Positions 897-57,913 of a stretch of 64,000 bases of DNA are shown in pieces. Below the pieces are notes generated by a model, which saw only the letters and a list, made by a program, of their open reading frames with translations, did no database searches and was not told where the DNA came from. The number at the start of each line of letters is the position of its first letter. The stretch's first letter is position 1. The DNA is from Abditibacteriota bacterium. Lineage in GTDB: Bacteria; Armatimonadota; UBA5829. The stretch spans positions 95,752-159,751 of the forward strand of contig JAFSVJ010000028.1 in NCBI GenBank assembly GCA_017445025.1. Reading direction: 5' to 3'. A program made the translations under genes and the position numbers.

Positions 897-1021
897 AAGG
901 CGAGTATAAAAATACCAAAGAACCGAAAATATCTTTTTTTTATAGGGATTTTCAAGCGAATAGCATAAGAAAAAATTGTTAAGCAAATAATAGGCTTTAG
1001 AATAAAGCCGGTGGATTAGCC

Positions 1022-1197
1022 CCATTTTCAAAAGAAATGGGGATTTTATTTATAAAAGTTCCATTTATGAAGAAAATGGGAGCTAAGGCAATTATGCGTC
1101 TACTATTTTTTCGTAAATGCGTGAGCGAAGGAAATCCCGTAATAAAAAATTAGAGATTTTCGGAAGATTTGGGATTTTTATACTCAAGACAAAATAA
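1022..1197. repeat. Left arm of a long inverted-repeat pair flanking the nitroreductase gene. It contains the MITE end-module 'TAATAAAAAATTAGAGATTTTCGGAAGATTTGGGATTTTT'.
   Basis: Its reverse complement matches 1978..2208 ('CCATTTTCAAAAGAAATGGGG', 'ATAAAAGTTCCATTTAT', 'ATGCGTCTA', 'AATAAAAAATTAGAGATTTTCGGAAGATTTGGGATTTTTATA', 'TCAAGACAAAATAA'). Confidence 0.75.
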
Positions 1198-1977: not shown

Positions 1978-2208
1978 TTATTTTGTCTTGATTATAAAAA
2001 TCCCAAATCTTCCGAAAATCTCTAATTTTTTATTACGAAAATCTCTTCGCTCCTTAACCTACAATTTTTTTTATAGACGCATAAAACCCTAAGCCCAAAT
2101 CCCAAAAAGTTTTGCAAGCTCAACTTTTCGGGAACCCTTGGGCGGCTCCCAATTTCTTTATAAATGGAACTTTTATAGATAAAAGCCCCATTTCTTTTGA
2201 AATTGGAG
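1978..2208. repeat. Right arm of the inverted-repeat pair flanking the nitroreductase gene. It carries a nested ~50 bp 'CCCAAAAAGT...ACTTTTCGGG' hairpin element at 2096-2150.
   Basis: Its reverse complement aligns with 1022..1197 along the whole length except for the nested insert. Confidence 0.75.
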
Positions 2209-2317
2209 CTTATGGACGGCTTTCGCCTTTTTATTTGCTTAATAAAAAAATCTTGTTATAGTCGCTTGATATTTTCTATAAAAAATTGATCTTTTCGGTG
2301 CTTTGGTATTTTTATAC

Positions 2318-3352
2318 TCACTTCTTATACTCGCTTGGAATTAGTTTGGGCTTTATTATTTTGTTATATTCTATTAAAGGTTTGTTTTCAATTAAAGCAT
2401 TTAATAATTCTATAGCTTCTCTTCCCACTTTGTATAAATCAAATTCCAGTCTTGAAATTTTATATTCTTCATTATAGTTTTGGTGAGCATGAGATTGGGT
2501 GATTATAGGTGTGTCTTTAAAAATATTGGGATAATCTCTAAAATATTCTGATGTAATATCAAACAAGTTATTATCCGTAAAAACTATCAAATCCGGTTTG
2601 GTTTTTATTGTATCAAGAATTTCTATAATTTCTCCTTCACCTTTATCTTTTTTTGAAATATAATTAATTCTGTAAAGACTATACTTTTCAAATATAATTG
2701 CTTCAAGGTGAAAAGGATAACAATCAAAGATTCTGTCAACATCTTCATCAAGTGGGTTTATGGTAAAAACCAGAACATTTTGAGCATTCATCTTATTTAT
2801 TTGATTTATTATTTCTTTATATAAATAAATATAATCTAATGAAACAGTTGGGTAAGGAAGATTATTAAATCTTAAAATATCCACTATAGGAATATCCAAC
2901 GACGCTATATATTGTAGATCCTTTAGCTCTGCACTTAGTGAAATTGCTCCGTCTATTTCGTTTTTAAAAGGACCTACAGAAGTTTCAATATCAAGAATAT
3001 CATTAGCAATAAAATACAAAGGAGTATAACCTTTGTCAATAATATATTTATTTAAAATCTTACAAAAAAACCTGTATAGTTTTTTTGTATCTCCTTTTGT
3101 TGAATAGGTTGTGGATACAATAAGAATATACTTTTTCTTTTCATTATTTTTTGCAACAAATGTTCCGCTACCTCTTATTCTTTTGATAATTCCTTCTTGT
3201 TCTAAATCTGTAAAGGCACTTCTTATGGTATTCCTGTTAACATTAAGTGTTTCTGCAAGAAGAACTTCACTAATCAGTTTGTCTCCGTATTTTAAGTTAT
3301 TTTCTTTTATATGATTATTAATATAATCTATTATTTGTTGTTTTTTTGTCAT
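2318..3352 (-). CDS. GntR-family transcriptional regulator with a C-terminal periplasmic-binding-protein-like (sugar-binding) domain; paralog 1.
   Basis: N-terminal winged helix-turn-helix motif 'YGDKLISEVLLAETLNVNRNTIRSAFTDLEQEGIIKRIRGSGTFVA'. Start placed at the internal 'MTKKQQ' preceded by GGAAGG. About 60% identical to the product of 8269..9309. Confidence 0.75.
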   Translation of the reverse strand: MTKKQQIIDYINNHIKENNLKYGDKLISEVLLAETLNVNRNTIRSAFTDLEQEGIIKRIRGSGTFVAKNNEKKKYILIVSTTYSTKGDTKKLYRFFCKILNKYIIDKGYTPLYFIANDILDIETSVGPFKNEIDGAISLSAELKDLQYIASLDIPIVDILRFNNLPYPTVSLDYIYLYKEIINQINKMNAQNVLVFTINPLDEDVDRIFDCYPFHLEAIIFEKYSLYRINYISKKDKGEGEIIEILDTIKTKPDLIVFTDNNLFDITSEYFRDYPNIFKDTPIITQSHAHQNYNEEYKISRLEFDLYKVGREAIELLNALIENKPLIEYNKIIKPKLIPSEYKK

Positions 3353-3476
3353 TTTTATTATCCTTCCCAATTTATTATATAACAAATCAACAAAGAAAGT
3401 CAACTTTAAAAATAATTAGTCTATACAACTTTTTTGTAAAAGATAGATTTTTTAGATTTTTTCTATAAAAATTCTA

Positions 3477-3506
3477 TTGACTTTATTTGTTTGATTATGG
3501 TATAAT
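3477..3506 (+). promoter_or_regulatory. Sigma70-type promoter for pilin-like gene 1: -35 TTGACT at 3477-3482, an 18-nt spacer, and an extended -10 TGGTATAAT at 3498-3506.
   Basis: Consensus hexamers with the TGn extension. The same 'TGGTATAATATAA' occurs upstream of the paralog at 9455. Confidence 0.6.
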
Positions 3507-3529
3507 ATAAATGTAAAAGCATAGTCCGG

Positions 3530-3558
3530 TAAATAATTAGTGTATACTTTTTTATTTA
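3530..3558. promoter_or_regulatory. Candidate operator: palindrome TAAATAA-N15-TTATTTA with a central GTATAC, lying between the -10 and the ribosome-binding site of pilin-like gene 1.
   Basis: Dyad symmetry read directly from the sequence. Analogous dyads occur at the same position in the two paralogous modules. Confidence 0.45.
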
Positions 3559-3596
3559 TCAGTTTATGTAAAAATATATTTAGGAGGAACATAAAA

Positions 3597-4376
3597 ATGT
3601 TCAAAAGAGGATTTACCCTTATAGAATTGTTGGTGGTTATCGCTATAATCGCCATTCTTGCTGCAATTCTATTTCCCGTTTTTGCCCAAGCAAGAGAAAA
3701 AGCCCGAGCCGCCAGTTGTCTGTCCAATGTAAAGCAGTTGGGAACAGCCCTTCAGCTTTATATTGATGACTACGACGAAACCCTTCCAGTTGGTTATGAT
3801 CCGGCCAGACCCACAACTAACTTGAGTGCCGATTATAACAACTATCCGGCTAAGTGTTTCCCATATATGTTCGCACAGGGATTGCAAGCTGAGATACATT
3901 ATTGGACTTGGATGGATTCCATATTCCCTTATGTTAAAAACGTAAAGTTATATACTTGTCCCTCATCCGGTAATATTAAAATCAATAATGTTTATACTTG
4001 CGGCTATGGATTTAACTACAAATTCACCGAATATTTACCAACAGGGGCTCCACAAGTAATTGCCTATGGTTCACTAAACAATCCATCTAAAAAAGTGTTC
4101 CTTGCTGATACTCAAGTTTCAACTGCAGGTTGGACAGACTTTATTATATGTCCTTACACTATGAGAATAAGAAAAAACGAAGGTGCAATAGCTTGGGTTG
4201 TAGGAATTCCTTCTATAAGACATAACGATGGAGCAAATTACACTTTCTGTGATGGTCATGCTAAGTTCTATAAAAGAAATGCTGGACCGACAGAGACAGT
4301 TATTGTTAACGGAACAGAAGCCAATAACTCTAATTACTGGGGTAATGGCGTTGATTGGTGGGATCCGGCTGCATAA
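3597..4376 (+). CDS. Secreted protein with a prepilin-type N-terminal cleavage/methylation domain and a C-terminal H-X9-DG motif (PVC-group pseudopilin-like family); paralog 1.
   Basis: '[32 protein letters not shown]' is a class III signal/prepilin N-terminus. '[17 protein letters not shown]' gives H-X9-DG. Strong ribosome-binding site AGGAGG. Confidence 0.8.
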
Positions 4377-4449: not shown

Positions 4450-4483
4450 GCCTCTTTTTTTAAGAGGCATTTTATTTTTTTTT
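4450..4483 (+). terminator. Rho-independent terminator (GCCTC-N9-GAGGC followed by a T-run) after pilin-like gene 1.
   Basis: Hairpin followed by a T-tract. Confidence 0.6.
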
Positions 4484-4702
4484 CAAGGCGTAAACACAAC
4501 TCCCCTAAAAATCTCTAATTTTTTATTTAATGAAATAACTCTTGTCTTATCTCATTGACGCTCTTTCGTATTAGAACAAAATCTATTCGGACTGCGTCCT
4601 CTATCTTTTGCCCTACTACTCTTTCGCTACACTCGATGACGACAATTCGCTATTTCTTATAAAAAAATTGATCTTTTTGGTGATTTGTGTTTACACCTTG
4701 AG
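4483..4702 (-). mobile_element. MITE-like non-autonomous element (~220 bp) with 17-bp terminal inverted repeats TCAAGG(C/T)GTAAACACAA, flanked by a ~20-bp direct repeat GAGGCATTTTATTT(A)TTTTTT.
   Basis: Homologous to the inserts at 23055..23271 and 44695..44909. Shared ends are 'CACAAATCACCAAAAAGATCAATTTTT' and 'TTAAATAAAAAATTAGAGATTTTTAGGGGAGTTG'. Confidence 0.7.
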
Positions 4703-4731
4703 GCATTTTATTTATTTTTTTAGGTTGTAAT

Positions 4732-8268: not shown

Positions 8269-9309
8269 TTATTCATTATTCTTATACTCGCTTGGGATTA
8301 GTTTGTGTTTTATTATTTTGTTATACTCTATTAAAGGTTTATTTTGAATTATACCCTCTAATAACTCCATAGTCGCCCTTCCCATTTCATATAAATCAAA
8401 TTCCAGTCTTGTAATATTATACTTACCTGTATAGCTCCAATTTATATTTGAATGAGTTATAATAGGAGTATCTTTAAATATATGAGGATAATCATCAAAA
8501 TATTCTGATGTTATCTTGAACAAATTATCGTCCAAAAACACTACCATATCAGGCTTTTCTTTTATGTTATCCAATATATTTACTATTTCTTCTTCACCAT
8601 TATCTTCACTTTGACCATAACTTATACGATTGTTATTGTAATCACTAAATATAAAATCTTCCAACTGAAAGGGATAACTGCTGTATACATTGCTAACACT
8701 ATCTTTTCTCAAAGCCAAAGAAAATATCAAAACATTAGTGCAACCGTTTCTTTTGATTATTTTTATTATCTCTTCATGAAAATAACTAAAATCAAAGGTG
8801 ACCAAGGGATAAGGGGTTGGCAAGACACCTAAAACATCTACAATGGGTATATTGTTTGACGCAATATAATCTAAATCTTCCACTCTGCCCGCTAATGAAA
8901 TAACTCCTGCAATCTCATATTTATATGTCTCTATTAAAGTTTTAATATCTATCATTTTATTGGAAATAAAATATATAGGTGTATAATTTCTGTCAATAAT
9001 ATACTTATTTAATATTTTAAAGAAGAATCTAAAGATTTTCTTTATATCTCCTTGAGTTGCGTAATCTGTGGAAACTATAAAAATATACTTTTTTTCCTTA
9101 TTCTTCAGTGCCACAAATGTGCCTCTGCCATGCTCTCTATCTATAATCCCTTCTTTTTCAAGATCAGCATAAGCTATTCTAACGGTTCCCCTACTGATTT
9201 TTAATTCTTCCGCAAGGAGAGTTTCACTTATTATTTTATCTCCGTATTTTAAATTATTGTCTTTAATATAATCTTTTATATACTTAATTATTTCTTCTCT
9301 TTTGGTCAT
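8269..9309 (-). CDS. GntR-family transcriptional regulator with a sugar-binding-like C-terminal domain; paralog 2.
   Basis: 'YGDKIISETLLAEELKISRGTVRIAYADLEKEGIIDREHGRGTFVA'. Ribosome-binding site AGAGGTGA. Confidence 0.75.
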   Translation of the reverse strand: MTKREEIIKYIKDYIKDNNLKYGDKIISETLLAEELKISRGTVRIAYADLEKEGIIDREHGRGTFVALKNKEKKYIFIVSTDYATQGDIKKIFRFFFKILNKYIIDRNYTPIYFISNKMIDIKTLIETYKYEIAGVISLAGRVEDLDYIASNNIPIVDVLGVLPTPYPLVTFDFSYFHEEIIKIIKRNGCTNVLIFSLALRKDSVSNVYSSYPFQLEDFIFSDYNNNRISYGQSEDNGEEEIVNILDNIKEKPDMVVFLDDNLFKITSEYFDDYPHIFKDTPIITHSNINWSYTGKYNITRLEFDLYEMGRATMELLEGIIQNKPLIEYNKIIKHKLIPSEYKNNE

Positions 9310-9434
9310 ATTTCACCTCTGTCAATTATATTATAATATAAAAACACATTAAAAAGCAATTTATTAAAAAATAGGTATAAACAAGTTTTTTCAAAAAAAT
9401 GAGTTTCAATAATATTTTATATATAAGATCTCCT

Positions 9435-9463
9435 TGACATTTATAATTTAAATATGGTATAAT
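9435..9463 (+). promoter_or_regulatory. Sigma70-type promoter for pilin-like gene 2: -35 TTGACA at 9435-9440, a 17-nt spacer, and an extended -10 TGGTATAAT at 9455-9463.
   Basis: Consensus hexamers with the TGn extension. Confidence 0.65.
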
Positions 9464-9486
9464 ATAATTGATAAAGAAAAATCCAA

Positions 9487-9518
9487 ACAATTAATAGGTA
9501 TATACAAGTTAATTGTTT
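9487..9518. promoter_or_regulatory. Candidate operator palindrome AACAATTAA-TAGGTATATACAAG-TTAATTGTT between the -10 and the ribosome-binding site of pilin-like gene 2.
   Basis: 9-bp perfect arms; the centre contains the palindrome GTATATAC. Confidence 0.5.
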
Positions 9519-9546
9519 AGATTAAAAATTTAGGAGGAACATTACC

Positions 9547-10242
9547 ATGTTCAAAAAAGGATTTACCCTTATAGAATTGTTGGTTGTAATAGCAATTATA
9601 GCCATTCTTGCTGCAATTCTATTCCCCGTTTTCGCTCAAGCAAGAGAAAAGGCCAGACAAACCAGTTGTTTGTCAAATTGTAAACAAATAGGAACAGCGC
9701 TTCAACTTTATGTTGATGACTATGATGAAACTGTTCCGTTAATGTGGTACAACAGCAACCCATTTCCAACAGATAATTCATATCCTTGCTGTATGTTTAC
9801 CACAATGGATTTTATCTATGGCGGTCCAGCACTATGGACTACTTGGATGGATGCTATATTTCCTTATGTAAAGAATAGAAATATATTTATTTGTCCTTCC
9901 GGAGGAAAAAATCTTGCAGGTTATGGTTATAATGGTAATTTAGTTGGTGGTTATACTGTATGGACACAGGAAAACGCAAAGCCTATCAATCTCGCTCAAA
10001 TCAATAACTCTTCTCAATTAACATTTATTGGGGATACTCTCCAAGGTGGAACTTATAGTGCTATGCCTTTATCTTCTGCTTTAATTTATGCTTATAAGAA
10101 AAATATTAATAGGCATATTAGTGGTATGAATTGGACATTTTGTGATAGTCATGCTAAATACTATAAAGATTCAGCAGGACCGGCCTCTGCACCTAACGAC
10201 TGGATTTGTGCAGGAAATGTTTGGTGGGACCCTGCTGCTTAA
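9547..10242 (+). CDS. Prepilin-type N-terminal cleavage/methylation plus H-X9-D(S/G) protein; paralog 2.
   Basis: '[38 protein letters not shown]'. The C-terminal '[17 protein letters not shown]' gives H-X9-DS. Confidence 0.8.
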
Positions 10243-14689: not shown

Positions 14690-15240
14690 ATAAATGCACA
14701 ATATACCCCCCACGATGAAAAACTTTTTGTTTTTCATCGTTGCCCCCCTCGGGGGGCAAAAGGGTTTTCCCTTTAACTTTGGATATGTTTATAAATTTAC
14801 GCTCTTAATAATAAGAAAATTTCCCTTTACCTCCCTTTTTTCCTATGGCTCTTTTTGAGCAAATCCAAAATCTTGAGACTTATTTATAAACACCTTTTTT
14901 GGTAGTATATTTTATTCTCTGTCTTCGAATGTTCATAAAATACACCACCAAAAAAGATGTTATGTAATAGGCTTATCTAAATTTTAATTTCGTATTTGCT
15001 CAAATTCCAAGGGCTCCCGAAAAGTCGTAGCGTAGCAAGACTTTTTGGGAATGGAAAAATAACCATAACAAAAAAAGGGGCGTTCCTTAATTTAAAGGCT
15101 GGCTTCGGTTAATTGACTCTTTAATCACGGGAAATAAGAGCAAGAAGGGAAACTTGAGCCTCCTTTAAGTAGAATTCACACCTCTTGCAAATTCACATAA
15201 AAATAGAGCAAAACTATTCACAATATATTAGGTTATTATT

Positions 15241-17926: not shown

Positions 17927-18091
17927 ATTTCTATGCTTTAAAATTAGTTTTTATTGGTTAGAACAAGTAAAATTTCCTTACATAACCATATATATTATAC
18001 TCAAAAAAAAAAAAAACGCAAGTTTTAAGACATAAATGGTGAAAAAAATAAAAAAATTTCATTTCGGGGCAAATAAAAAGCAAAAATAGAT

Positions 18092-18166
18092 AATCAAAAA
18101 TCAAAGTCGTGGTGCTATGCACCACGTATTTCTGCTTTTTACTTTTATTTTTTGATTTGTGATTTA
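18092..18166. repeat. AATCAAAAATCAAAGTC + GTGGTGCTATGCACCAC hairpin + TTTGATTTGTGATTT element.
   Basis: Member of the family listed at 13296. Confidence 0.5.
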
Positions 18167-18244: not shown

Positions 18245-19845
18245 TTTTTATAAAGAATCACCCCCCTAACGCAGTGCGACAACTGTTTTTTTTCGGACAA
18301 TTACATAAAGATTTGTTTAGTTAGTGGGTAAGACTTTAAATTTCGCGCCATAAGTGCTTTTTAGATTGTAGATTGTTGAACAAAAAAAGCCTTTTGTTTA
18401 CGGAAATCTAAAACCTTACGTAATCACTTTAGACATCAGTCTTTAATACCGAAATCGTTTAGGTTCTTTATCATTATTATGACTAAAACAGAAATTTATC
18501 TCCGGAATTTCCATTTCTGTTCCTTCATAATACTTTGAATACATTTGGAATGTAGTCATATTAGTGTTTGTATATTTTCGTTCATAATTATAATAATGCA
18601 TCCATTCTTCTATTCCTTTATTGAACACTTCAAGTGTTTCAAACTGGCGTTGATTATAAAACTCATCTCTAAGAACGTGATAAAATTGTTCAATAAAGGG
18701 ATTATCTGTGCTTTTATAGGGACGGCTGTGACTTTGCTTTAAACCTAATTTCTCTAAATAATTATGAAAGCCATAAGTGCGATATATTCCCGCTCTATCT
18801 GAATGAAATATACCATCGGTGATCTTAAAAGGTAAAGCTTTTTCTAATAGTTTTAGGGTTTCATTTGCCAGATCGGAATTTTCATGAAATGAAGTGTGAA
18901 AACATATTATCATACGGGAATAATAATCCATAACACAAGATACTTTTATTATGCCAAAGCTATATTCCAACTTAATAACATCGGTGCAAAAGTATCTTAA
19001 AGGTTCATTTGCTCTAAAACCTGTTTTAATTAATCGTTCACATGCCGGCATCCTATCTTTTGTTAAGGATTTATTCTTGCAGCGACTCTCTTTTTTGGTT
19101 AAAAGCAGTCCTTCTTTTTTGGCAATTTTATAGACCTTTTCTTTATAAGTTTTAATACCATAGTCTTCGTAAAGAATAGAAACTAAAGCTTTGCAACCAC
19201 GATATATCTTTCTACGTTCTCGTATATCATGTAAAGCTAAACGAATCTTTTCGTCAATCGGATCTTGTGGCTTTTCCTCTTTAGGCTTATCGTTATCATA
19301 AAAGGTAGAACTTGGTATTTTAGTATGTTTAAACAACATTGTTTTTGTAAAAAATTCTTGATATAAATTGACTATAAAAACCTTAACATCATTTTTTATC
19401 TTTGTCTTTTTTTTTTCAAGAACATTAAATGCTGTGTTAACACAAAGCTCACAATCTAAATCTTTTATGATTTCAATTAATTCTTTTTGGGATTTATTTT
19501 CTAATTGTTTAAGATCAATGGGTTTTCTAAATTCAGCTTCATTTTTCTTTTTTTCTTTGTTAAAAAAGCTCATTGGACCTTTATCCTTATATTGACTAAC
19601 CCAAGAACGAATTGTTTTTCCGCCAGGCTTAGTTTGATTGGGAAGCAATTTTCTTGCAGTTTGCTTAAATGAAAGAAAATGCTCTCTCATATATATTATA
19701 GCATATATTTTGTATTCTGGCGAATAATAAGCCCTCTTTTGTGGCTTTTTTGAGATTTTGCTATCCATTAATTTTCCTCCTATTTGTCCGAAAATTAACA
19801 GATAGCACACGCAGTAGGGGGGGGACTGATTGTCAATCATAGCCA
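18245..19845 (-). mobile_element. Insertion sequence (~1.6 kb) with ~40-bp imperfect terminal inverted repeats (TTGTCCGAAAA..CAG…GC..TAGGGGGG.TGATT) at 18250-18310 and 19780-19840.
   Basis: The inverted repeats were found by comparing the reverse complement of the left end with the right end. A transposase ORF lies between them. Confidence 0.65.
18443..19768 (-). CDS. DDE transposase with an rve/integrase core (IS3/IS481 superfamily), encoded as a single ORF.
   Basis: 'HSDRAGIY' and 'SRPYKSTDNPFIEQFY' match the rve catalytic-core signatures (HSDRG…, SR.G…DNA..E). N-terminal helix-turn-helix. Start placed at the internal 'MDSKISKK' so that the CDS lies inside the right inverted repeat. Confidence 0.75.
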   Translation of the reverse strand: MDSKISKKPQKRAYYSPEYKIYAIIYMREHFLSFKQTARKLLPNQTKPGGKTIRSWVSQYKDKGPMSFFNKEKKKNEAEFRKPIDLKQLENKSQKELIEIIKDLDCELCVNTAFNVLEKKKTKIKNDVKVFIVNLYQEFFTKTMLFKHTKIPSSTFYDNDKPKEEKPQDPIDEKIRLALHDIRERRKIYRGCKALVSILYEDYGIKTYKEKVYKIAKKEGLLLTKKESRCKNKSLTKDRMPACERLIKTGFRANEPLRYFCTDVIKLEYSFGIIKVSCVMDYYSRMIICFHTSFHENSDLANETLKLLEKALPFKITDGIFHSDRAGIYRTYGFHNYLEKLGLKQSHSRPYKSTDNPFIEQFYHVLRDEFYNQRQFETLEVFNKGIEEWMHYYNYERKYTNTNMTTFQMYSKYYEGTEMEIPEINFCFSHNNDKEPKRFRY

Positions 19846-19884
19846 AGTATAAACTTTGGATGCCCGACAAACTTTAAATTCCAT

Positions 19885-19936: not shown

Positions 19937-19974
19937 AATTGTGCATTGTTAATTGTGATTATAGAATTAAAACT

Positions 19975-22900
19975 ATGAACCCTGTGTATTCTCTTGAAAC
20001 AAAAATTAATAATAAATTAAAAGAGCTTAAGGCTCTTATTACTTTAAAAGAAATAAATATGGAGCCTTGGGAAATTCGTCATGCCAAATATATAGACTTT
20101 GGCAATTATGATTATTTAGATGATTGGCAAACTCTCAACATAGGGGATTTTTGGGCCACTTCCGGAGAGACTGCTTTCATAAAAAAAACTGTTAACATTA
20201 ATAACCATAAAGGGGAATATATAGCTCTTTTTTTGGATACAGACGGAGAGGGTTTATTATATCTCAACGGAAAACCTTTCCACGGAGTTGACAATTTTAG
20301 AGGCTATATCTGCCTCACTCCTTCCGCAAAAGAAACAGAAACTTTCAATCTTCTCATAGAGCACAAAGCAGGTGGTTATGAGGACTTTGAAGACAAACCT
20401 ATAAAACATATATTCAAAGAAGCTAAATTACTATCCCTTGACAAAGAACTTGAAAGCATATATTACGACTATCTTGTGCCTTTTGATGTTGCTTGTCACA
20501 CCAAAGATGAAATCACCTCCAAACTTGTCAAGAATTTAGTCTACGACAGCCTTTTATCCGTTAACTTCAATAAAAACAGGGATACAGTCAAAAAAGCTCT
20601 TATAGAGGAAATTCAAAACTTTAAAGACAAACTTTCCACTCTCCCTAAAGCTCCCGGAGCGGTTCATTTTATAGGTAATTCCCATATAGATTTGGTTTTC
20701 ATGTGGCCGGAGCGAGAGACTCACAGAAAGGTGGGCAGAACCTTTAACTCTCTCTGTCGCCTTATGGAAGAATTTCCTCACTATTATTTTATGTGTTCCC
20801 AAGTTCCCATTTATGAATATTTAAAAGAGCTTTACCCTGACACATACTCTCAAATCAAAGAATTAATCAAAGAAGGAAGATTTGAGCCTATCGGTGGCAC
20901 TTATGTCCAACACTCCACCAATCTCCTATCCGGTGAAAGTTTGGTTCGTCAATGCCTATACGGAAAAAGATTTTTCAGAAAAGAATTTAATTATGATGTA
21001 AAAATCGGTTGGCTTCCGGACACCTTCGGTTTTGTTCACTCTCTTCCCCAAATCTACAAGCAAGCGGGAATTGACACACTCATAACTCAAAAGCTACGCT
21101 ACAATGACATAAATTCACATTATGAAGAAAACCTACCCCCTGAGTTGTTATTTAACTGGAAAGGCTGTGACGGTTCCACTCTTTTGGTCTACCACACAGG
21201 GTCCTACAAACATTTAACAACAAATAATATGGAATTTATGCTATATAACATTGGTTATTATTATAATAAAATTAAACATTTGCCAATGCCTGACTATTTG
21301 GCACCATACGGTTTCGGTGACGGTGGAGGTGGTGTTAACAGACGAGAATTGGAATATATAAAAAGGCTTGACACAGCTCCGGGTTTTCCAAAAGTTAAAT
21401 ATGGCACTGTTAAAGATTTCACAGAAAACCTGCCCACAGAGAATTTAAATACAATTGACGATGAACTTTACCTTGAAGCTCACAGAGGCACATACACAAG
21501 TCAAGGTGAAATTAAAAAATTAAACAGACTTTGCGAGATTGGTCTCAGAAACTGTGAAATATTAGGTGTAATAACCCAAAATTATGATAAGACAAAACTT
21601 GCCACGCTTTGGAAAAAAACTCTCTTTAATCATTTTCACGATATTCTTCCCGGATCCTCTATTCACGAAGGAGTAATAGACGCCAAAAAGTCTTACACTG
21701 AAATTCTTTCTGAATCAAACAGAATTATCCACCATAATCTAAAAGTTTTGGCAAAAAGGACAAACACTGAAGGAGATGGTGTTTCTATATTTGTATTTAA
21801 TCCTCTTTCTTATAGGAGAGAAGCTTTAGTTTCTGTTCCTATTACTGAAAATCAAATTATCAAAGATAAAGACGGAAATATTGTCCCAAGTCAAATCTCC
21901 GGGAATAACATCATATTTAACGCCAATATAGACGCCTTTAGTGGAAAAGTATATTTTGCCAACATAGGTATAAATAAAAACACATCACTTATTACATTTA
22001 AAAACAATATTATTGACACTCCTTTGCTTAAAATCACCTTAAAGGATGGTTATATCTCTCAAATCTATGACAAGGATGCAGACAGAGAGCTGTTAGAATG
22101 CGACAGTAATGTTCTGCAAGTTTTTGAAGACAAAGGCGGTTTCTTTGACGCTTGGGATATAGACCCATTATTTGAGAAAAATAAAGAAGAATTTATTCTT
22201 TGTTCAGAGCCAACCCTTATGGAAATTGGTCCTGTCAGATGTGTTATAAGAAGTGAGTATAAATATAACAAATCTTCCATAACTCAAGATATGATAGTCT
22301 ATCCCAATTCAAAGAGAATTGATTTTAAGACACAAGCTAATTGGCACGAAAGCCACACTATGCTAAAAGCATCTTTTAAAGTCAATACAAGATCCACAGA
22401 AGCCACTTATGAAATTCCCTACGGATCTATCAAACGACCCACCACAAGAAATAACAATATAGAAAGAGCAAAGTTTGAAGTATGCGGGCAAAGATGGGCC
22501 GACTTGTCAGAACCTAACTATGGAATATCAATTCTCAACAATTGCAAATACGGTTATGATATAAAAGAAAATGAAATGAGAATTACTCTTCTTCGCAGTC
22601 CCAAGCACCCGGATGCCACCTGCGATATGGGAGACCATGAGTTTACCTATTCCCTATTCCCCCATACAACTTGCTTATTAAAAGAAACAGTTAAAGAAGC
22701 TCATTCTTTAAATAATCCTCTCTTGTCTACAATTACAGACAACCACAAGGGAGAAGAATTAACATCTTTTGTGAATGTTTTAACAGATAATGTTATTATT
22801 GACTGTATCAAATTTGCTGAAGATACTGATGATATTGTCCTTCGCCTTTATGAACCCTACGGTCAAAGGGGAAAAGTGACCTTATCATTTAACAAAAACA

Positions 22901-23022
22901 TAAGAAATATAAAAGAAATTAATATTCTTGAAGAAGAAATAGGAAAAGTTCAAATCAATAACAATATTATGGAATTTGACATTAAACCTTTTGAAATAAA
23001 GAGTTTTCTTATAAAATGTTAG
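19975..23022 (+). CDS. Glycoside hydrolase family 38 alpha-mannosidase
   Basis: The N-terminal catalytic region 'FIGNSHIDLVFMWPERETHRKVGRTFNSLCRLMEEFPHYYFMCSQVPIYEYLKE' is characteristic of GH38. Length of about 1000 aa is consistent. Confidence 0.8.
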   Translation: MNPVYSLETKINNKLKELKALITLKEINMEPWEIRHAKYIDFGNYDYLDDWQTLNIGDFWATSGETAFIKKTVNINNHKGEYIALFLDTDGEGLLYLNGKPFHGVDNFRGYICLTPSAKETETFNLLIEHKAGGYEDFEDKPIKHIFKEAKLLSLDKELESIYYDYLVPFDVACHTKDEITSKLVKNLVYDSLLSVNFNKNRDTVKKALIEEIQNFKDKLSTLPKAPGAVHFIGNSHIDLVFMWPERETHRKVGRTFNSLCRLMEEFPHYYFMCSQVPIYEYLKELYPDTYSQIKELIKEGRFEPIGGTYVQHSTNLLSGESLVRQCLYGKRFFRKEFNYDVKIGWLPDTFGFVHSLPQIYKQAGIDTLITQKLRYNDINSHYEENLPPELLFNWKGCDGSTLLVYHTGSYKHLTTNNMEFMLYNIGYYYNKIKHLPMPDYLAPYGFGDGGGGVNRRELEYIKRLDTAPGFPKVKYGTVKDFTENLPTENLNTIDDELYLEAHRGTYTSQGEIKKLNRLCEIGLRNCEILGVITQNYDKTKLATLWKKTLFNHFHDILPGSSIHEGVIDAKKSYTEILSESNRIIHHNLKVLAKRTNTEGDGVSIFVFNPLSYRREALVSVPITENQIIKDKDGNIVPSQISGNNIIFNANIDAFSGKVYFANIGINKNTSLITFKNNIIDTPLLKITLKDGYISQIYDKDADRELLECDSNVLQVFEDKGGFFDAWDIDPLFEKNKEEFILCSEPTLMEIGPVRCVIRSEYKYNKSSITQDMIVYPNSKRIDFKTQANWHESHTMLKASFKVNTRSTEATYEIPYGSIKRPTTRNNNIERAKFEVCGQRWADLSEPNYGISILNNCKYGYDIKENEMRITLLRSPKHPDATCDMGDHEFTYSLFPHTTCLLKETVKEAHSLNNPLLSTITDNHKGEELTSFVNVLTDNVIIDCIKFAEDTDDIVLRLYEPYGQRGKVTLSFNKNIRNIKEINILEEEIGKVQINNNIMEFDIKPFEIKSFLIKC

Positions 23023-23054
23023 CACTTATAACAGGAGCCTCTGATGGTATAGGG

Positions 23055-23271
23055 AAACAAAAAAATACAAATCATCCAAAAGCACAATTTTTTATAAGCA
23101 ATTTTGAGTGTAGTCGTCGACTGTAGACTCGCAGAATAAGGTTATTTTTAAAGGCAAAAGCCATTTAAAAATGTCCTTAGGCGAGAATCGTCAAGGAGAC
23201 ACGAAACGAAAAAGTGCGTTAAATAAAAAATTAGGGATTTTGAGAGGAGTTGTGATTTTATGTTTTTAATA
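23055..23271 (+). mobile_element. MITE-like element (~217 bp, degenerate ends) inserted at the mannosidase/SDR gene junction and flanked by ~70-bp direct repeats (22987..23054 and 23272..23343).
   Basis: The direct repeats each contain the 3' end of the mannosidase gene plus the 5' end of the SDR gene. The internal sequence is homologous to 4483..4702 and 44695..44909. Confidence 0.7.
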
Positions 23272-23305
23272 CCTTTTGAAATAAAATCTTTTTTAATAAA
23301 ATGAA

Positions 23306-24067
23306 ATGACAGCACTCATAACAGGAGCCTCTGATGGTATAGGCAAAGCATTTGCTTATGAACTGGCAAAAAAACAATATAATTTAATACTCATTGCAAG
23401 AAGAGAAGAATTGTTATCAAAAATAAAATCTTCTCTTGAAAAAGAATATAACATTTCAGTCAATTATTATTCTCTCGATTTGACCACTCAGATAAATGAA
23501 TTTTGCCAAATCATAAGAGATAACAAGCCGGACATCCTTATCAATTCCGCAGGCTTCGGAAGACCCGGGCTTTTTGTGGATTTGGACTTTGCCTGTCACG
23601 CAGAAATGCTCTCAGTCCATATTGAAGCTGTTGTGAAGAGCAATTATGAAGCCTTAAAATATATGAGAGAAAAGAAAGAAGGCATGATTATAAATATCTC
23701 ATCTCTTGCCGGACTGATTTTAGGAAAAGGCTACACTATGTATGGCTCCACCAAACATTTTATAGCAGATTTCTCTCAAAGATTGGCTTTTGAGGCAAGA
23801 AAAGATAATGTCTATATTCAAGCTCTCTGCCCCGGCTTCACATATACAGGATTTCACGACACAGAATATTACCCCCATTTCGACAGAAGCAAATATCCCA
23901 AATTTCTTTGGCAAAGTCCGGAGTCTGTGACACAAGAAAGTCTTAAAAAATATAAAACTCCCCTACTAATTCCAAGGACACTTAACAGATTTATCTATAT
24001 TTTAAGTCAAACTCTTCTTTTTAAATACATAATTGCCAAAATAATGAAAAGTAGCAAATTTGTATAA
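23306..24067 (+). CDS. Short-chain dehydrogenase/reductase (SDR) family oxidoreductase
   Basis: 'TGASDGIGKAFA' Rossmann motif. Confidence 0.75.
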   Translation: MTALITGASDGIGKAFAYELAKKQYNLILIARREELLSKIKSSLEKEYNISVNYYSLDLTTQINEFCQIIRDNKPDILINSAGFGRPGLFVDLDFACHAEMLSVHIEAVVKSNYEALKYMREKKEGMIINISSLAGLILGKGYTMYGSTKHFIADFSQRLAFEARKDNVYIQALCPGFTYTGFHDTEYYPHFDRSKYPKFLWQSPESVTQESLKKYKTPLLIPRTLNRFIYILSQTLLFKYIIAKIMKSSKFV

Positions 24068-26246: not shown

Positions 26247-26441
26247 ATTCAGCCCCCCCACTATGTAAGGGGTTGAATTGCAGCAATCTCGGGGTCCCCA
26301 AAAAGCCCTGCGAATAGCGAAAACAACCCAAGGGATCCCGAAAAGTCGTAGCATAGCAAGACTTTTTGGGAATGGGTTTTAGGGGTGAGAAATAAGCATC
26401 GCTTTTTTGTAAAAACGCCCAAGGCACCCCGTCATTATTAT

Positions 26442-26660
26442 AATCAAAAATAGAAAATCAAAAATCAAAATTGAAAGTGCTAACCTTTAAGAGCAACTGA
26501 AAAGTTAAGAGCCGGCTAATTGGATTATTAATTATTAATTTTAAAAATAGGGGGCGAACCGGCGTGCAAATTTAAAAAGGCGTCTATAAAGCTTAGAGCC
26601 CACCAACATAAGTGGTGCGTAGCACCACGAATTTTGATTTTCTATTTTTGATTTTTGATT
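26442..26660. mobile_element. MITE-like element with ~30-bp terminal inverted repeats (AATCAAAAATAGAAAATCAAAAATCAAAATT / AATTTTGATTTTCTATTTTTGATTTTTGATT) enclosing ~155 bp that includes a GTGGTGCGTAGCACCAC hairpin. The right inverted repeat overlaps the last codons of hydE.
   Basis: Inverted repeats verified by reverse complement. The internal segment 'GCTAACCTTTAAGAGCAACTGAAAAGTTAAGAGCCG' is shared with 46240-46275. Confidence 0.6.
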
Positions 26661-27685
26661 ATATTTCTTGCGTGGCCTTGATCTATAGATACTTGACGAT
26701 TGCAAGAAATTATAAGATCTTTAATTGTAGATAAGATTGTATCCGTGTTTTCGGAGATACACTTTTTTCCGGGGTAAATTTCATATAATATCTTATACTT
26801 TTGAGGAGTAAAGTTAATCATAATAACATCACATCCCACGCTCAAACCTTTCTTATAACCTTCATTACCTATGGTTGCAAGGGCTGTGGTTGCAGGCATA
26901 AGAGCGGTTTTTGTTATTATTCTCACCAGTGCCAACATTTTAAGAGTCAAAAAAACATCTCCGTTAGGCTCACCCTTAAAAGGTGTATGTTCATGCATAA
27001 CATAAGGACCTATTCCCACCATTTCAGGTTTGAAATCTCTTATAAACTCCAAATCTTCAGCCAAATATTCTGTCTTCTGTCCCGGAGAGCCCACCATACA
27101 CCCTACCCCGGTTTGATAACCTAATTTTTTTAAATTTCTCAAACATTCAAGCCTTGTGTCCAAAACTCCGTCAGGGTGCAAATATTTATAATGTTCCTTG
27201 TTGGCGGTTTCATGTCTCAACAGATACCTGTTAGCTCCGGCCTCTTTCCAAAGCTTATAAGTTTCAAAAGAATGTTCCCCAAGGCTTAAAGTCACAGCCA
27301 TATCAGTGTTAGATTTTATTTCCCTTATTAAATCTGCCAAATCAAAAGGATTATAGGTCTTGCTTTCCCCACCTTGCATAACTAAGGTTTTTACACCTTT
27401 TTTATCCATATCAAGAGCAATTGAATATATCTCCTCTATGGGCATTTTATACCTTTGAACAAGATCATTATTTGCCCTTACACCGCAATAATTACAATTA
27501 CGAGCACATATATTGCTTATTTCCAACAAACCTCTTATTTGAACCTTTTCACCACAATAATCCTTTCTTATTTTATCGGAAAGACTAAATAAAGAAACAG
27601 CCTCATCCGAATTTAAAGACAAGGCCTCTATTAAGTCATTTTTGGTATAATTATTTGATTTTATTTTATTTAGTAAATTATTCAT
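26642..27685 (-). CDS. hydE: Radical SAM protein of the BioB/HydE type, likely the [FeFe]-hydrogenase maturase HydE.
   Basis: 'CARNCNYCGVRANND' radical-SAM Cx3Cx2C motif. About 350 aa. Adjacent to a HydG-like gene. Confidence 0.55.
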   Translation of the reverse strand: MNNLLNKIKSNNYTKNDLIEALSLNSDEAVSLFSLSDKIRKDYCGEKVQIRGLLEISNICARNCNYCGVRANNDLVQRYKMPIEEIYSIALDMDKKGVKTLVMQGGESKTYNPFDLADLIREIKSNTDMAVTLSLGEHSFETYKLWKEAGANRYLLRHETANKEHYKYLHPDGVLDTRLECLRNLKKLGYQTGVGCMVGSPGQKTEYLAEDLEFIRDFKPEMVGIGPYVMHEHTPFKGEPNGDVFLTLKMLALVRIITKTALMPATTALATIGNEGYKKGLSVGCDVIMINFTPQKYKILYEIYPGKKCISENTDTILSTIKDLIISCNRQVSIDQGHARNIIKNQK

Positions 27686-28023
27686 TGGAATGATTATTAT
27701 TTCCTTATAAATCCAAGAGAACTTATTCTAAATCTTGTAAAGCCAACTGTAAACCTTAATTGCTCCTATACTAAGTAGGGCAAAAGTTAGTAGACTTTTT
27801 GGGATTTACAAAACTGCTTCACCCTCTTTGAACTGAATTTGCTTTCGCAAATTCATTTCAAGGAGGGGGACCACAAGGCGTAAGCCATTGTGGTGGGTGG
27901 TCAGGAATAAATTTGCATAGAATTGCAAATTTATGATAGAAGCATAATAATATAACAGAGCAACCACATTTGAAGACGGTGGGTGGTCAGGAGTAAAAAT
28001 AGCTAAACTGCAAATTTTACGAT

Positions 28024-38689: not shown

Positions 38690-38960
38690 TTATTATCGCA
38701 AAATCGTTCCGCACCCCCCGCCGTTTTTGACAGTTTTCCTACGGAAAACACCAAAAACGACTACAGGGTGGGGGGTCTATAAAGGGCTCCCGAAAAGTCG
38801 TAAGACTTTTTGGGAATAATGCCCTATGGGGATGGGGGCCCGACTTCGGGGCTACCCCCCTCCGGCTCCCCCCTATATGCCTTCTAGTATAGGCTGGTCA
38901 ACAGAATTTTACCCCCATAGGGGGGGAGAGAGTGGTGCTCCTACATTACCATTTCCCTTG
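38690..38960. repeat. GC-rich, G/C-run-rich repeat mosaic inserted between yidD and yidC (CCCCCC/GGGGGG runs and a CCCGAAAAGTCGTAAGACTTTTTGGG hairpin).
   Basis: Composition clearly differs from the AT-rich background. It contains copies of the hairpin families seen elsewhere in the window. Confidence 0.5.
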
Positions 38961-39088
38961 ACTAAAGTATCTATCCACCATAGCCCACCTTAAAAATTAG
39001 GGCCCGGTAACCTAAGTGGTGCGAACCACCACAAGTTTGATTTTCTATTTTTTGATTATTGATTTTAAATTTGCCATTGGCAAATTTA

Positions 39089-43984: not shown

Positions 43985-44614
43985 ATGTTTACCGGAATAG
44001 TTGAAGAAATAGGAAAAATAGCTTCAATTAATGTTGGAGTTGTTTATGATTTAATTATAAAATGCCCCATAACGGCACCAAAATGCTCCATAGGTGACAG
44101 CGTAGCCGTAAACGGTATATGTCTTACTGTGACAAAAATAAAAGGTGATTTACTCTCTTTTAATGCCGTGAGAGAAACCATAAGCAGAACCTCTTTAAAA
44201 GAATTAAAAGTGGGAAGTGAAATAAACCTTGAAACTGCTCTGACTTTATCTAAACCCATAGGAGGCCATTTGGTTTCAGGTCATATTGACGGAGTGGGAT
44301 TAATTTCAAACATTCTCAATGTTGGTGACTCAAAGGAAATAACCTTTTCTGCGGGAAAAGATATTTTAAAATATATTATAGAAAAAGGATCTGTTTGTAT
44401 TGACGGGATATCCTTGACTGTAGCATCGGTCTCTTCGGACAGTTTTAAAGTTGCCTTTATACCGCACACCCTTGAAAATACTTCCCTTAAAAGCAAAGGC
44501 ATTGGTTCAAATGTCAATATCGAATGTGATATAATAGGAAAATATGTGGAAAAATTACTCAACAAAAGTAGTGAAAAATCACTGATTGATTTATTGAAAG
44601 AAAACGGATTTTAA
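43985..44614 (+). CDS. ribE: Riboflavin synthase alpha subunit
   Basis: 'MFTGIVEEIGKI'. Confidence 0.85.
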   Translation: MFTGIVEEIGKIASINVGVVYDLIIKCPITAPKCSIGDSVAVNGICLTVTKIKGDLLSFNAVRETISRTSLKELKVGSEINLETALTLSKPIGGHLVSGHIDGVGLISNILNVGDSKEITFSAGKDILKYIIEKGSVCIDGISLTVASVSSDSFKVAFIPHTLENTSLKSKGIGSNVNIECDIIGKYVEKLLNKSSEKSLIDLLKENGF

Positions 44615-44748
44615 TGGATTTTATAATAAATGATTTTGAATTTGCGACAATAGAAGATGCAATTAAAGATATACAACAAGGTAAAATGTTAATTTTTAAA
44701 ATCACAAATCACCAAAAAGATCAATTTTTCGCAAGAAATATGGAATGA
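44614..44748 (+). pseudogene. Duplicated 5' fragment of ribBA (first 27 codons) that reads into the inserted MITE and terminates.
   Basis: 'MDFIINDFEFATIEDAIKDIQQGKMLI' is about 90% identical to the true ribBA start at 44913. Confidence 0.6.
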
Positions 44749-44909
44749 AGTCGTCGACCGTAGACTCGGAACAAAATGTTTTTTTTCAAGGCATTAGCCA
44801 TTGATAAAATGTTATTATGTGAGAATCGTCAGGAAGACACGGAAAGACATATTTCGTTAAGCGAAAAAATAGAGATTTTTAGGGGAGTTGGGTTTTTAAA
44901 AATAAAAAA
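44695..44909 (+). mobile_element. MITE-like element (~215 bp) inserted at the ribE/ribBA junction and flanked by ~84-bp direct repeats (44611..44694 and 44910..44993).
   Basis: Direct repeats read from the sequence. The insert is homologous to 23055..23271 and 4483..4702 ('GAAGTCGTCGACCGTAGACTCGG', 'GAGAATCGTCAGGAAGACACGGAAAG'). Confidence 0.7.
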
Positions 44910-44912
44910 TTA

Positions 44913-46130
44913 ATGGATTTAATAATGAATAATTTTGAATTTGCGACAATAGAAGATGCAATTAAAGATATACAACAAGGTAAAATGTTAATCGTTGCTG
45001 ATGATGAAGATCGAGAAAACGAAGGCGATTTCATAATGGCTGCGGAAAAAATAACCCCTGCAGATGTAAATTTTATAACAAAATACGGAAGGGGATTGGT
45101 TTGTTGCCCAACCACAGGAGAAAGATTGGAAGAATTAAAACTTCCTATGATGGTTCAAAACAATACAGCTCCTTTAGGAACAGCTTTTACAGTAAGTGTA
45201 GACGCTCTCAAAGGAACAACCACAGGAATTTCTTGCAATGACAGAGCCATAACCCTAAATGCTATGGCAAATCCAAACACTAAGCCTGAGGATTTGGGAC
45301 GTCCCGGTCATATTCACCCTCTCAAAGCCAAGGATGGGGGCGTGTTGGCAAGAGCGGGACATACGGAAGCTGTGGTTGACCTGTGTAAATTGGCAGGTTT
45401 ACATCCCACCGGTGTCTTATGCGAAATACTTAAAGAGGACGGCACTATGGCAAGGGTGCCGGATTTGATTGAAATATCAAAAAAATTTAATTTAAAATTT
45501 ATAACCATTGCAGAAATAATCAAATACAGACGAAAACACGAAAAACTGGTAAAGAGATCTGCGGAATGTCACCTTCCTACCGAATATGGAGATTTTAATA
45601 TGATTGCATACGAAACATCCATAGAAGCAGACCCCTATATAGCTTTAACAATAGGAAATATAGCTGACGGTGAACCTTGTTTGGTTCGGGTTCACTCAGG
45701 ATGTTTTACCGGCGATGTTTTAGGCTCAAAACGATGTGATTGCGGTGACCAACTACACAAATCAATGGAAATGATTGCAAAGGAAGGCAAAGGAGTTGTG
45801 GTTTATATTCAACACCACGAAGGACGAGGGATTGGCCTTATAAATAAATGCAAAGCTTACAAACTGCAAGAAAAGGGAAGAGACACTGTAGACGCCAATT
45901 TAGAATTGGGCTTTCCCGCAGATATGAGAGATTACTCATTAGGCGCACAAGTCTTAATGGACTTAGGCGTCACAAAAATGAGACTTTTAACTAATAACCC
46001 AAAGAAATATGTTGGACTTTCCGGATACGGATTGGAAATAGTGGAAAGAGTGCCTATTGTAATAAAACCAAATGAAATTAATAAAGATTATTTGGAAACA
46101 AAGAAAGAGAGAATGGGACACTTATTGTAA
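44913..46130 (+). CDS. ribBA: Bifunctional 3,4-dihydroxy-2-butanone-4-phosphate synthase / GTP cyclohydrolase II
   Basis: 'RENEGDFIMAAE', 'RVHSGCFTGDVLGSKRCDCG'. Confidence 0.9.
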   Translation: MDLIMNNFEFATIEDAIKDIQQGKMLIVADDEDRENEGDFIMAAEKITPADVNFITKYGRGLVCCPTTGERLEELKLPMMVQNNTAPLGTAFTVSVDALKGTTTGISCNDRAITLNAMANPNTKPEDLGRPGHIHPLKAKDGGVLARAGHTEAVVDLCKLAGLHPTGVLCEILKEDGTMARVPDLIEISKKFNLKFITIAEIIKYRRKHEKLVKRSAECHLPTEYGDFNMIAYETSIEADPYIALTIGNIADGEPCLVRVHSGCFTGDVLGSKRCDCGDQLHKSMEMIAKEGKGVVVYIQHHEGRGIGLINKCKAYKLQEKGRDTVDANLELGFPADMRDYSLGAQVLMDLGVTKMRLLTNNPKKYVGLSGYGLEIVERVPIVIKPNEINKDYLETKKERMGHLL

Positions 46131-52446: not shown

Positions 52447-52855
52447 ATTTGTGTAGCAAATTCCACGGGTTCCCGAAAACCCCCGCTTGCGAATTACCCT
52501 AGGGTCCCCTAAAAAACCCTTGCGTAGCAAAACTTTTTGGAAATGTTTTTTTTGGATTTAGAATAGTCCTCCGACTTTTTGAGATTTGGGTAAGGAGGAT
52601 ATAGGGGGGGATATTTAAAGCGAATTTTTGCATTCACTCGCTTTGTGAGATAGAAGCCTAATAATCTACAGAGCAACCCAAATAAGAAAGTGTATCAATT
52701 GGGAAATATAAAAAAATTTTTAATAGCAATGCTTAAAAATTGTTTTTTTTTGATATGTTATAACACTATCGGGATTGCAAATGTTTCTTTTTACAATTAC
52801 AATTCACAATAAAAAAAATTCCCCATAAGGAGAATTCTTTTTTTTGTTTTAATTA

Positions 52856-57664: not shown

Positions 57665-57695
57665 TTTTTTACCTCTCTCATTTTCCTACTTGTAT

Positions 57696-57726
57696 TAATA
57701 AGTTTTTAATACAAGTATGATATATT
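57696..57726. promoter_or_regulatory. Candidate operator palindrome TACTTGTATTAA-TAAGTTT-TTAATACAAGTA between the promoter and the ribosome-binding site of pilin-like gene 3.
   Basis: 12-bp perfect arms. Confidence 0.5.
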
Positions 57727-57754
57727 TTTTTGCTTTACAATAATAATTATATCA

Positions 57755-57783
57755 CATTTTCATCAAAATGTCAAGGTTTTTTT
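57755..57783 (-). promoter_or_regulatory. Sigma70-type promoter for pilin-like gene 3 on the minus strand: -35 TTGACA (57778-57783), a 17-nt spacer, and an extended -10 TGATATAAT (57755-57763).
   Basis: Consensus hexamers. Confidence 0.55.
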
Positions 57784-57913
57784 AAGTAAAAAATTCAAAA
57801 AATTCAAAAAATCGAAAAAAAGTTATTATAATAAATTAAGTTATAACTTGATTTTTTTTTATAAATATAGTATAATAATATATGATAACTTATTAGTATA
57901 AATCAGGTATAAT

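Follow-up and report, generated by a model that had tools for sequence, protein, structure and literature searches.

Long target duplications flank a very probably mobile family of hairpin elements in an Abditibacteriota genome and rebuild interrupted gene ends

The stretch analyzed here (the window; 64,000 nt of contig JAFSVJ010000028.1 of an Abditibacteriota bacterium, uncultured and from the rumen) carries three copies, termed A, B and C, of a short non-coding hairpin element, each held between direct repeats. The original prediction had described three copies of ~215 bp with such repeats, and all three lie where it placed them, with slightly refined coordinates. Copy C (type I, 216 nt, 44694–44909, plus strand; delimited by alignment, nhmmer score 199.7) sits at about codon 27 of ribBA (44913 or 44925 to 46130). 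Its left repeat (83 nt, 44611–44693, plus strand) opens with the final 4 nt of ribE (43985–44614), stop codon included, and continues as a relic ribBA 5' end, from which a 44-aa open reading frame (ORF; 44614–44748) reads into the element. The right repeat (83 nt, 44910–44992, plus strand) is the source of the functional ribBA start. The two differ by 3 mismatches over 83 nt, and their ribBA portion amounts to about 27 codons. An independent ENA rumen assembly (L011) has this insertion in identical form, repeats included.

Copy B (type I, 208 nt, 23058–23265, plus strand; alignment, nhmmer score 185) lies in the first codons of an SDR gene (23306–24067), just beyond its 7-nt overlap with a mannosidase gene of family GH38 (19939–23022). 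The left repeat (76 nt, 22982–23057, plus strand) holds the functional mannosidase tail and stop together with a relic SDR start whose sequence, MLALITGASDGIGK, agrees with the start of the orthologues P0121 and P0122. The right repeat (82 nt, 23266–23347, plus strand) holds a relic mannosidase tail (PFEIKSFLIK and stop) and the functional, remodelled SDR start (MTALITG...). One 5-nt indel separates these repeats, which are ~85% identical. Copy A (type II, 216 nt, 4484–4699, minus strand; alignment) follows directly on an intrinsic terminator, antisense to the flanking genes. Its left repeat (20 nt, 4464–4483, plus strand) comprises the 3' arm of the terminator stem and the T tract, and the right repeat (20 nt, 4700–4719, plus strand) matches it with 1 mismatch.

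The reading frames at the mannosidase/SDR and ribE/ribBA junctions confirm that the neighbouring genes are intact and that each repeat supplies one gene end. The elements do not sit at gene junctions, as first described, but inside the genes near their ends, as at ribBA, where the repeat includes just 4 nt of ribE. Among direct repeats lying within 900 nt of each other anywhere in the window, the element-flanking pairs were the longest (83 nt; 47+33 nt), and they include the pair of 20–25 nt. Within the window, long flanking repeats are specific to these three ~210-bp copies, and none of the other small repeat families there has them.

Relatives offered element-free versions of both gene junctions. 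In contigs L012 and L100 (ribBA orthologues 88% and 82% identical) the ribE stop is followed after 6–13 nt by the ribBA ATG, with the segment in single copy and no element. A 93% relative (L098) likewise has no element upstream of ribBA. The SDR junction is single-copy in the DNA of an 84% relative (L099), and in a 93% relative (the P0121 contig) the SDR has a 7-nt overlap with the upstream gene as judged from gene coordinates only. P0121 and P0122 start MLA(V/L)ITGASDGIGK, the sequence encoded by the relic left copy of the window; the functional right copy starts MTALITG. Since these junctions (L012, L100, L099 and the P0121 contig) are single-copy and without an element, the duplications arose with or after the insertions, and a duplication older than the element does not fit them.

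Different repeat families have settled at the ribE–ribBA junction: in an 86% relative (L013, 1477–2135) the spacer measures 660 nt and contains other, GC-rich hairpin repeats, with no ribBA duplication. Just downstream of ribH the 88% relative carries terminase-like genes, both large and small (L012, 1983–3858), and a prophage or phage remnant there adjoins the riboflavin operon.

Two relatives of ~300 bp had been missed in the original prediction. Copy D (type III, ~300 nt, 893–1197, plus strand) has the conserved ends of the family around a different interior, with no flanking direct repeat detected. Copy E (type III, 1978–2328, minus strand) is inverted relative to D and contains a nested small palindromic repeat (~2087–2140). 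Degenerate patterns for each of the two conserved ends gave 5 matches in the window and 0 in 100 shuffles. The ends read 5'-AAAAT-N-ACAAATCACCAAAAAG ... AGGGGAGTTGGG-ATTTT-3', with ~45 nt per end common to all subfamilies in the alignment. Three subfamilies were separated by alignment: type I (B, C and the elements of L001, L003, L004, L005 and L010a), type II (A, L006, L007 and L009) and the ~300-nt type III (D, E, L002 and L010b). Copies recovered by nhmmer were all full length. The elements resemble MITEs (miniature transposable elements with inverted repeats) in being non-coding and shorter than 500 bp (208–216 nt for types I and II, ~300 nt for type III) and in their terminal inverted repeats: the 17-bp repeat described for copy A is present with 1 mismatch, and all copies have an imperfect one of ~45 bp. 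They depart from MITEs in their duplications, whose length is neither short nor family-specific and varies from 20 to ~120 nt.

Copies D and E bracket a nitroreductase gene (1358–1870) in a composite-like arrangement. A more distant relative (L015, 1120–1850) has the orthologous nitroreductase directly upstream of the SDR, preceded by a single diverged element, and a type III element is again paired with a nitroreductase in L008.

All copies fold as one long imperfect hairpin with two arms of ~100 nt, the foldback spanning the entire element. RNAalifold predicted 67 pairs on a 10-sequence alignment. Pairing was kept in 94% of the cells of this alignment, compared with 40–56% when partners were slid, and two-sided (compensatory) changes were seen at 35 of the 67 pairs (5–13 when slid), a count reached in 0 of 500 shuffles. 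The internal loops are conserved across subfamilies; the arms have therefore not simply been re-copied from one another. The forward strand folds 7–23 kcal/mol better, yet z-scores are equal and the bias is compositional, and an unbiased count of wobbles (27 G-U versus 18 A-C, p = 0.23) was not significant. A strand-specific RNA signature was rejected as evidence on these two grounds, and no claim is made from the folding data as to the strand of the folded species or whether it is RNA or DNA.

Rfam 15 at gathering score returned nothing relevant in the window or at 10 loci, the sole window match being a tRNA (61107–61179); its E-value mode, run on L003 and L005, gave only chance-level matches. 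No signal for promoter or terminator function of the element rose above shuffles. Type I elements contain a frame of 30–65 aa (MLFCENRQGDTK...EKLEIFRGVG), open in 6 of 7 copies (e.g. window 44776–44913 and 23168–23266) and absent from type II. It is probably spurious as a protein, and is called in public databases as 17 clusters.

A scan of metagenomes with the exact 3'-end pattern identified 10 contigs with rumen-type sample names, and the type I frame used as a protein query (MLFCENRQGDTK...EIFRGVG) added 17 element-bearing contigs, all metagenomic. The 3'-end scan gave zero matches in IMG/VR and in the GTDB representatives (one genome per species), among which the closest ribBA is 64% identical, the matches coming from scattered phyla; blastn of copy C found no match in plasmids and phages. 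The nearest ribBA matches that bear a name (68%) belong to Armatimonadota and Abditibacteriota, and together with the DUF1559/prepilin-type proteins they hint weakly at an Armatimonadota-like host. Long flanking repeats recurred at ≥10 independent loci, with lengths of 20, 34+, 76–82, 83, ~100, ~107, ~111, 116, ~118 and ~119 nt, so the copies found elsewhere do not uniformly have short duplications. These lengths cluster at ~76–120 nt, about one hairpin arm, with 20 and 34+ nt as outliers, and the repeats start in AT-rich sequence.

The repeated segments differ from locus to locus. In L004 the repeat takes in the region upstream of xseB and the gene's first ~27 codons; at least 52 nt of it, 100% identical, precede the contig end, and geometry gives ~111 nt. 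That of L009 (116 nt, 1 mismatch) includes a RING-finger gene's promoter and first ~18 codons, and the one in L101 (5507–5715; ~119 nt in total, at least 55 nt of it with 100% identity) stretches from the stop of the upstream gene into a LacI-family gene as far as codon ~27. A type III element in L104 (4393–4667) has a 34-nt repeat of an acetyltransferase C-terminus. The repeat in L003 (~100 nt, diverged) begins at the A tract of a terminator, and that in L010a reaches at least 39 nt (~118 nt by geometry). A ~107-nt repeat, seen in L005, L101, L102 and L103, consists of a terminator and, as far as the anticodon loop, the 3' half of tRNA-Met(CAT). Over 52–55 nt the youngest repeats show 100% identity. 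Insertion sites thus lie within ribBA (~codon 27), the mannosidase/SDR overlap, the tRNA-Met anticodon loop, xseB and the LacI-type gene, and one repeat copy keeps the gene end intact at ribBA, SDR/mannosidase, xseB, the RING-finger gene, the LacI-type gene, tRNA-Met and the acetyltransferase.

Some loci are compound. Beside tRNA-Met, units of ~310 nt (element plus segment) are stacked with three different element variants, and their order, M1-M2-M3, is the same in the scaffold and in an independent MEGAHIT contig. Arrays or triple segments were also seen at the LacI-type gene, where L101 has an older third segment copy and a second element, in L006, where one segment occurs in three copies around two different elements, and probably in L009. 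In L101 (9537–10750), L102 and L103, at least 3–5 tandem units of element plus 107-nt tRNA-Met 3' segment stand by an intact tRNA-Met(CAT), with mixed subfamilies and two types of terminator hairpin.

We conclude that the hairpins are very probably a real mobile family that duplicates ~20–120 bp of target on insertion and survives as copies in which the interrupted gene end is rebuilt. The duplication comes about with the insertion, and the element lands inside genes near an end. In persisting copies the duplication spans the whole interrupted gene end, either start and promoter or stop and terminator; one repeat is functional and the other decays. Empty sites and recurrence at independent loci uphold the original proposal of a MITE-like family with unusually long target duplications. 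Its further suggestion, selection for insertions that preserve genes, gains support from six more loci (xseB, RING-finger, LacI-family, tRNA-Met, acetyltransferase C-terminus and a terminator-bearing site). Rebuilding of the gene end through the duplication lets the element sit inside essential genes closed to ordinary transposons, such as those for riboflavin synthesis and an initiator-type tRNA-Met.

The junctions bear on the route of insertion. Beside the conserved AAAAT...ATTTT lies an outer stem of 3–9 bp (helix 1, columns 4–9/215–220) that differs among copies and is complementary within each. The elements of L004, L010a and L001 have interiors 90–94% identical and unrelated outer stems (AATTGAAT/TTCAATT, TCTC/GAGA and TTTTT/AAAAA, respectively). 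Outer stems exist already in the youngest copies, whose repeats remain 100% identical. That they represent a palindromic target or part of the duplicated segment was ruled out, the sequence past the right repeat being without the left outer stem (L004, L010a and copy A). Some junctions also contain unpaired filler, e.g. ATAAAAAA in copy C and GAC in L004. The type III elements D, E and L002 have a common outer stem, GAGTAT/ATACTC.

On its left side the element at tRNA-Met borders tRNA sequence that runs as far as the anticodon loop. Its right outer stem reads AATCA-ACAAAA-ACCCGGAG; this matches 12 of 13 nt of the anticodon loop and stem in tRNA sense, and is thus an inverted copy of the target that abuts the opposite end of the element. 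In L009 the left outer stem mirrors the opening bases of the right repeat. An inverted target copy cannot result from staggered cuts by a transposase but can from extension of a 3' end on a folded hairpin, which suggests DNA synthesis across the hairpin. Such extension could have occurred at insertion, or later via quasi-palindrome template switching.

As the route we tentatively favor, short of conviction, a synthesis-coupled insertion with fold-back. The element would be non-autonomous and moved by a factor encoded outside it. The target strands would be opened or primed ~100 nt apart and the gap filled by copying, and the element would be joined by DNA synthesis with no clean cut-and-paste step. 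During synthesis of the second arm the new strand may snap into a hairpin and extend itself by a few bases, which would produce the copy-specific complementary outer stem and, at tRNA-Met, the inverted target copy as well. The long repeats could afterwards recombine to give tandem target–element arrays and, presumably, scarless loss and exchange of alleles from strain to strain. A more specific form of this route is possible but doubtful: in a copy-in without any cut-and-paste transposase, a target 3' end would prime synthesis on a single-stranded (DNA or RNA) copy of the hairpin, and the new strand would fold back, extend itself by a few bases and re-engage the chromosome ~100 nt upstream, leaving the long duplication. 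If true, this would be a bacterial mobile element akin to short interspersed elements (SINEs) or one based on template switching, and it might account for the long repeats of the insertion sequences (ISs) IS1549 and IS1634.

Several observations weigh against this account of the family and its route. L001, L007, L104 (9928–10136), D, E and the old L015 copy had no detectable repeat; the metagenome contigs are mostly short, and contig ends truncate several of the repeats. No moving enzyme was identified, an IS3-family gene (ORF 18443–19870) being the only transposase of the window. Only tRNA-Met shows the fold-back signature clearly and two further loci are suggestive, the outer stems elsewhere being neither target-derived nor traceable, and one odd indel in the inverted copy is common to all three units of the tRNA array, which are thus not three independent events. 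The single-stranded intermediate is hypothetical, the folding-energy bias being compositional and the wobble excess not significant. Simple duplication in situ is also not the whole history: the terminator hairpins of the tRNA relic segments (GTGAAG...CTTCAC) bear no relation to the one in the functional copy (CAGGCC...GACCTG), and the differences between the copy B repeats are patchy and synonymous. The latter are confined to ~35 nt at the gene junction (22995–23020 versus 23280–23305), and in the mannosidase tail comprise 5 substitutions in the K-S-F-L codons, all synonymous (AAG/AAA, AGT/TCT, CTT/TTA). The tail in the right repeat resembles that of the outgroup L099. Both the unrelated terminator hairpins and the copy B pattern point to later recombination or allele exchange via the long repeats. 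Synonymy throughout is unexpected for a decaying relic.

Another possible, though not probable, origin is as the ordinary MITE of a DDE-type IS like IS1634 or IS1549, with a transposase acting in trans that would bind the subterminal repeats and attack the target strands at a wide, variable spacing, followed by gap repair; the outer stems would be later products of quasi-palindrome template switching. Precedent exists in IS1549 of Mycobacterium smegmatis, IS1634 of Mycoplasma mycoides and the IS1634 family, with variable repeats of 8–514 bp, poorly conserved ends, AT-rich targets and "no mechanistic model" (PMC2266710), and in the IS1202 group (ISNCY), whose 16–28 bp target duplications are unusually long for a DDE element (PMC10132070). 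Duplications of this length are very rare, but long, variable ones do have precedents among DDE elements, for which the original prediction gave 2–14 bp as typical; for repeats as long and variable as these, IS1549 and IS1634 are the only ones. Such an origin would also agree with the long terminal inverted repeats, dispersed copies, empty sites and AT-rich repeat starts, and with the outer stem common to D, E and L002, as for ends borne by the element. Against it, the outermost bases are the most variable here, though in DDE elements they are normally the most conserved; outer stems are already present in copies with 100% identical repeats; and the inverted target copy is beyond the reach of staggered cuts.

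The search for an enzyme likewise speaks against a DDE origin. Pfam or NCBIfam models on ~50 window ORFs and 10 neighbour ORFs returned housekeeping genes and the one IS3-family transposase, whose ends are unrelated to the hairpin element; no reverse transcriptase, integrase or IS1634-type gene was among the ORFs scanned. No autonomous IS with matching ends was found in the window, the 27 metagenome contigs, the GTDB representatives, IMG/VR, plasmids or phages, collections that do not include the host genome.

Recombination-mediated capture as the primary route appears unlikely. Here a small circle or fragment carrying element and local segment would enter by a single Campbell-type crossover, leaving the segment on both sides, and could pop out and re-enter at the same locus in other strains. 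The repeats, the shortest 20 nt and most ~80–120 nt, are all long enough for homologous recombination. The tandem target–element arrays at tRNA-Met, the LacI-type gene, L006 and L009 would follow naturally, as would tRNA relics whose terminator hairpins look like imported alleles and the L099-like, synonymously differing mannosidase tail of copy B. Capture leaves unexplained how the element was first joined to the segment of each new locus, though ≥10 loci are occupied, and it does not account for the complementary outer stems; identity of the youngest repeat pairs is as for copying within one genome. Among the three mechanisms first proposed (staggered cleavage, template switching and recombination capture), the choice has been narrowed only a little.

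Very improbable, finally, is a non-mobile module (a resident structured RNA, regulatory or terminator sequence among unrelated tandem duplications or assembly artefacts), which could draw on the strong covariation, as in structured RNA, the T run after the hairpin and possible assembly problems in some arrays or contig-end repeats (L009 starts inside an element end and L101 has N gaps), but is largely refuted by presence and absence at orthologous sites of close relatives, and disfavored by the same insertion with its repeats in the independent assembly, copies inside unrelated genes, no Rfam match or promoter signal above background, and three clean cases on one 64-kb contig. Two further candidates were rejected. 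A diversity-generating retroelement is at odds with the mismatches of the ribBA repeats (T/A, A/G and G/A), which are not adenine-specific, and has no reverse transcriptase nearby. CRISPR-like arrays are excluded in that the "spacers" are copies of one another.

The window contains other repeats. An IS3-family insertion sequence (18261–19823; transposase ORF 18443–19870, minus strand) lies inside a GC-rich palindromic repeat, with CCCCCCTAACGCAG ... CTGCGT.AGGGGGGG flanking its inverted repeats, which suggests that this element targets GC-rich palindromes. A second small palindromic family (CCAAGGG.TCCCGAAAAGT...ACTTTTTGGGA) occurs at 15000–15054, 26321–26375, 38773–38804, 52456–52546 and 59242–59273; its members stand alone or are nested in hairpin elements (copy E at ~2087–2140, L007, and M3 of L101), without long flanking repeats. 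More small repeat families (GGTGGGTGGTCAGG...; TAAAGCTTAGAGCCCACC...GTGGTGCG...) are located at 27891–28023 and 59144–59188, at 26587–26663 and 38991–39067, and at 18071–18129, and short structured repeats are unusually abundant in this genome. Three paralogous divergent pairs of a GntR-family regulator and a DUF1559/prepilin-type N-methyl protein gene lie at 2318–4376, 8269–10242 and 56921–58945, the first two being 70–83% identical to each other in DNA.

Long, variable duplications, as in IS1549 and IS1634, have been without a mechanistic model for 25 years, and a small, abundant, non-coding family would give a series of junctions from which the mechanism could be worked out. With repeats of ~100 nt, homologous recombination should be able to undo insertions, and the insertions should tend to amplify in tandem and be open to exchange among strains. 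A practical caution is that short-read assemblies are broken by hairpin elements, which also leave relic starts and ends of genes and give rise to spurious small ORFs in protein databases.

The hairpin family shares with classical MITEs (Correia/NEMIS, RUP, ERIC, Nezha and Chunjie) a short, AT-rich, non-coding sequence with inverted-repeat ends, a dispersed distribution and a frequent position in or near operons. Chunjie is said to lie within an operon without breaking it. These elements have duplications of 2–10 bp, whereas the duplications described here restore tens of codons of the gene that was interrupted. For prokaryotic MITEs short duplications are the norm, and MITE transcripts form stable folds (PMC10969869). 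REP and REPIN sequences differ in being short GC-rich palindromes mobilised by RAYT without target duplication, whereas the present hairpins are ~100 bp, AT-rich and flanked by long duplications. The IS1202 group has a duplication length fixed for each element and TGT...ACA ends, as in Tn7; the ends of the hairpin family are variable, AT-rich and not TGT/ACA, and its duplications mostly measure 76–120 nt.

The tRNA-Met locus recalls tRNA-targeting integrative elements in that the repeat extends from the anticodon loop past the 3' end, the gene is reconstituted and the units are tandem. Unlike tRNA integrases, which use one fixed att site borne by the element, each hairpin locus repeats its own local sequence; the unit is ~310 bp and no integrase was present in any locus. 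In eukaryotes, non-long-terminal-repeat retrotransposons and SINEs duplicate their targets to variable lengths, nick at AT-rich sites and leave heterogeneous 5' junctions that contain filler or inverted sequence. Compared with such target-primed retroelements, the hairpin family showed no poly(A) tail, no 5'-truncated copies and no partnering reverse transcriptase; filler at the right end is frequently A-rich, though A+T makes up 66% of the genome. We know of nothing comparable to SINE-like target-primed insertion in bacteria. Quasi-palindrome template-switch mutagenesis yields inverted flanking copies that extend an imperfect palindrome, but it inserts nothing and would explain the outer stems as later events only.

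IS1549 and IS1634 offer the likeness of long direct repeats of variable length upon insertion, here from 20 to ~120 nt. They are autonomous elements of 1.5–2 kb with a DDE transposase, whereas the hairpin elements, for which no transposase partner was found, are non-coding, 210–300 bp long and foldback throughout. The family further differs from both in repeats that cluster near 100–120 nt and in junctions whose complementary stems are particular to each copy and which, at one locus, carry target sequence copied in inverted orientation.

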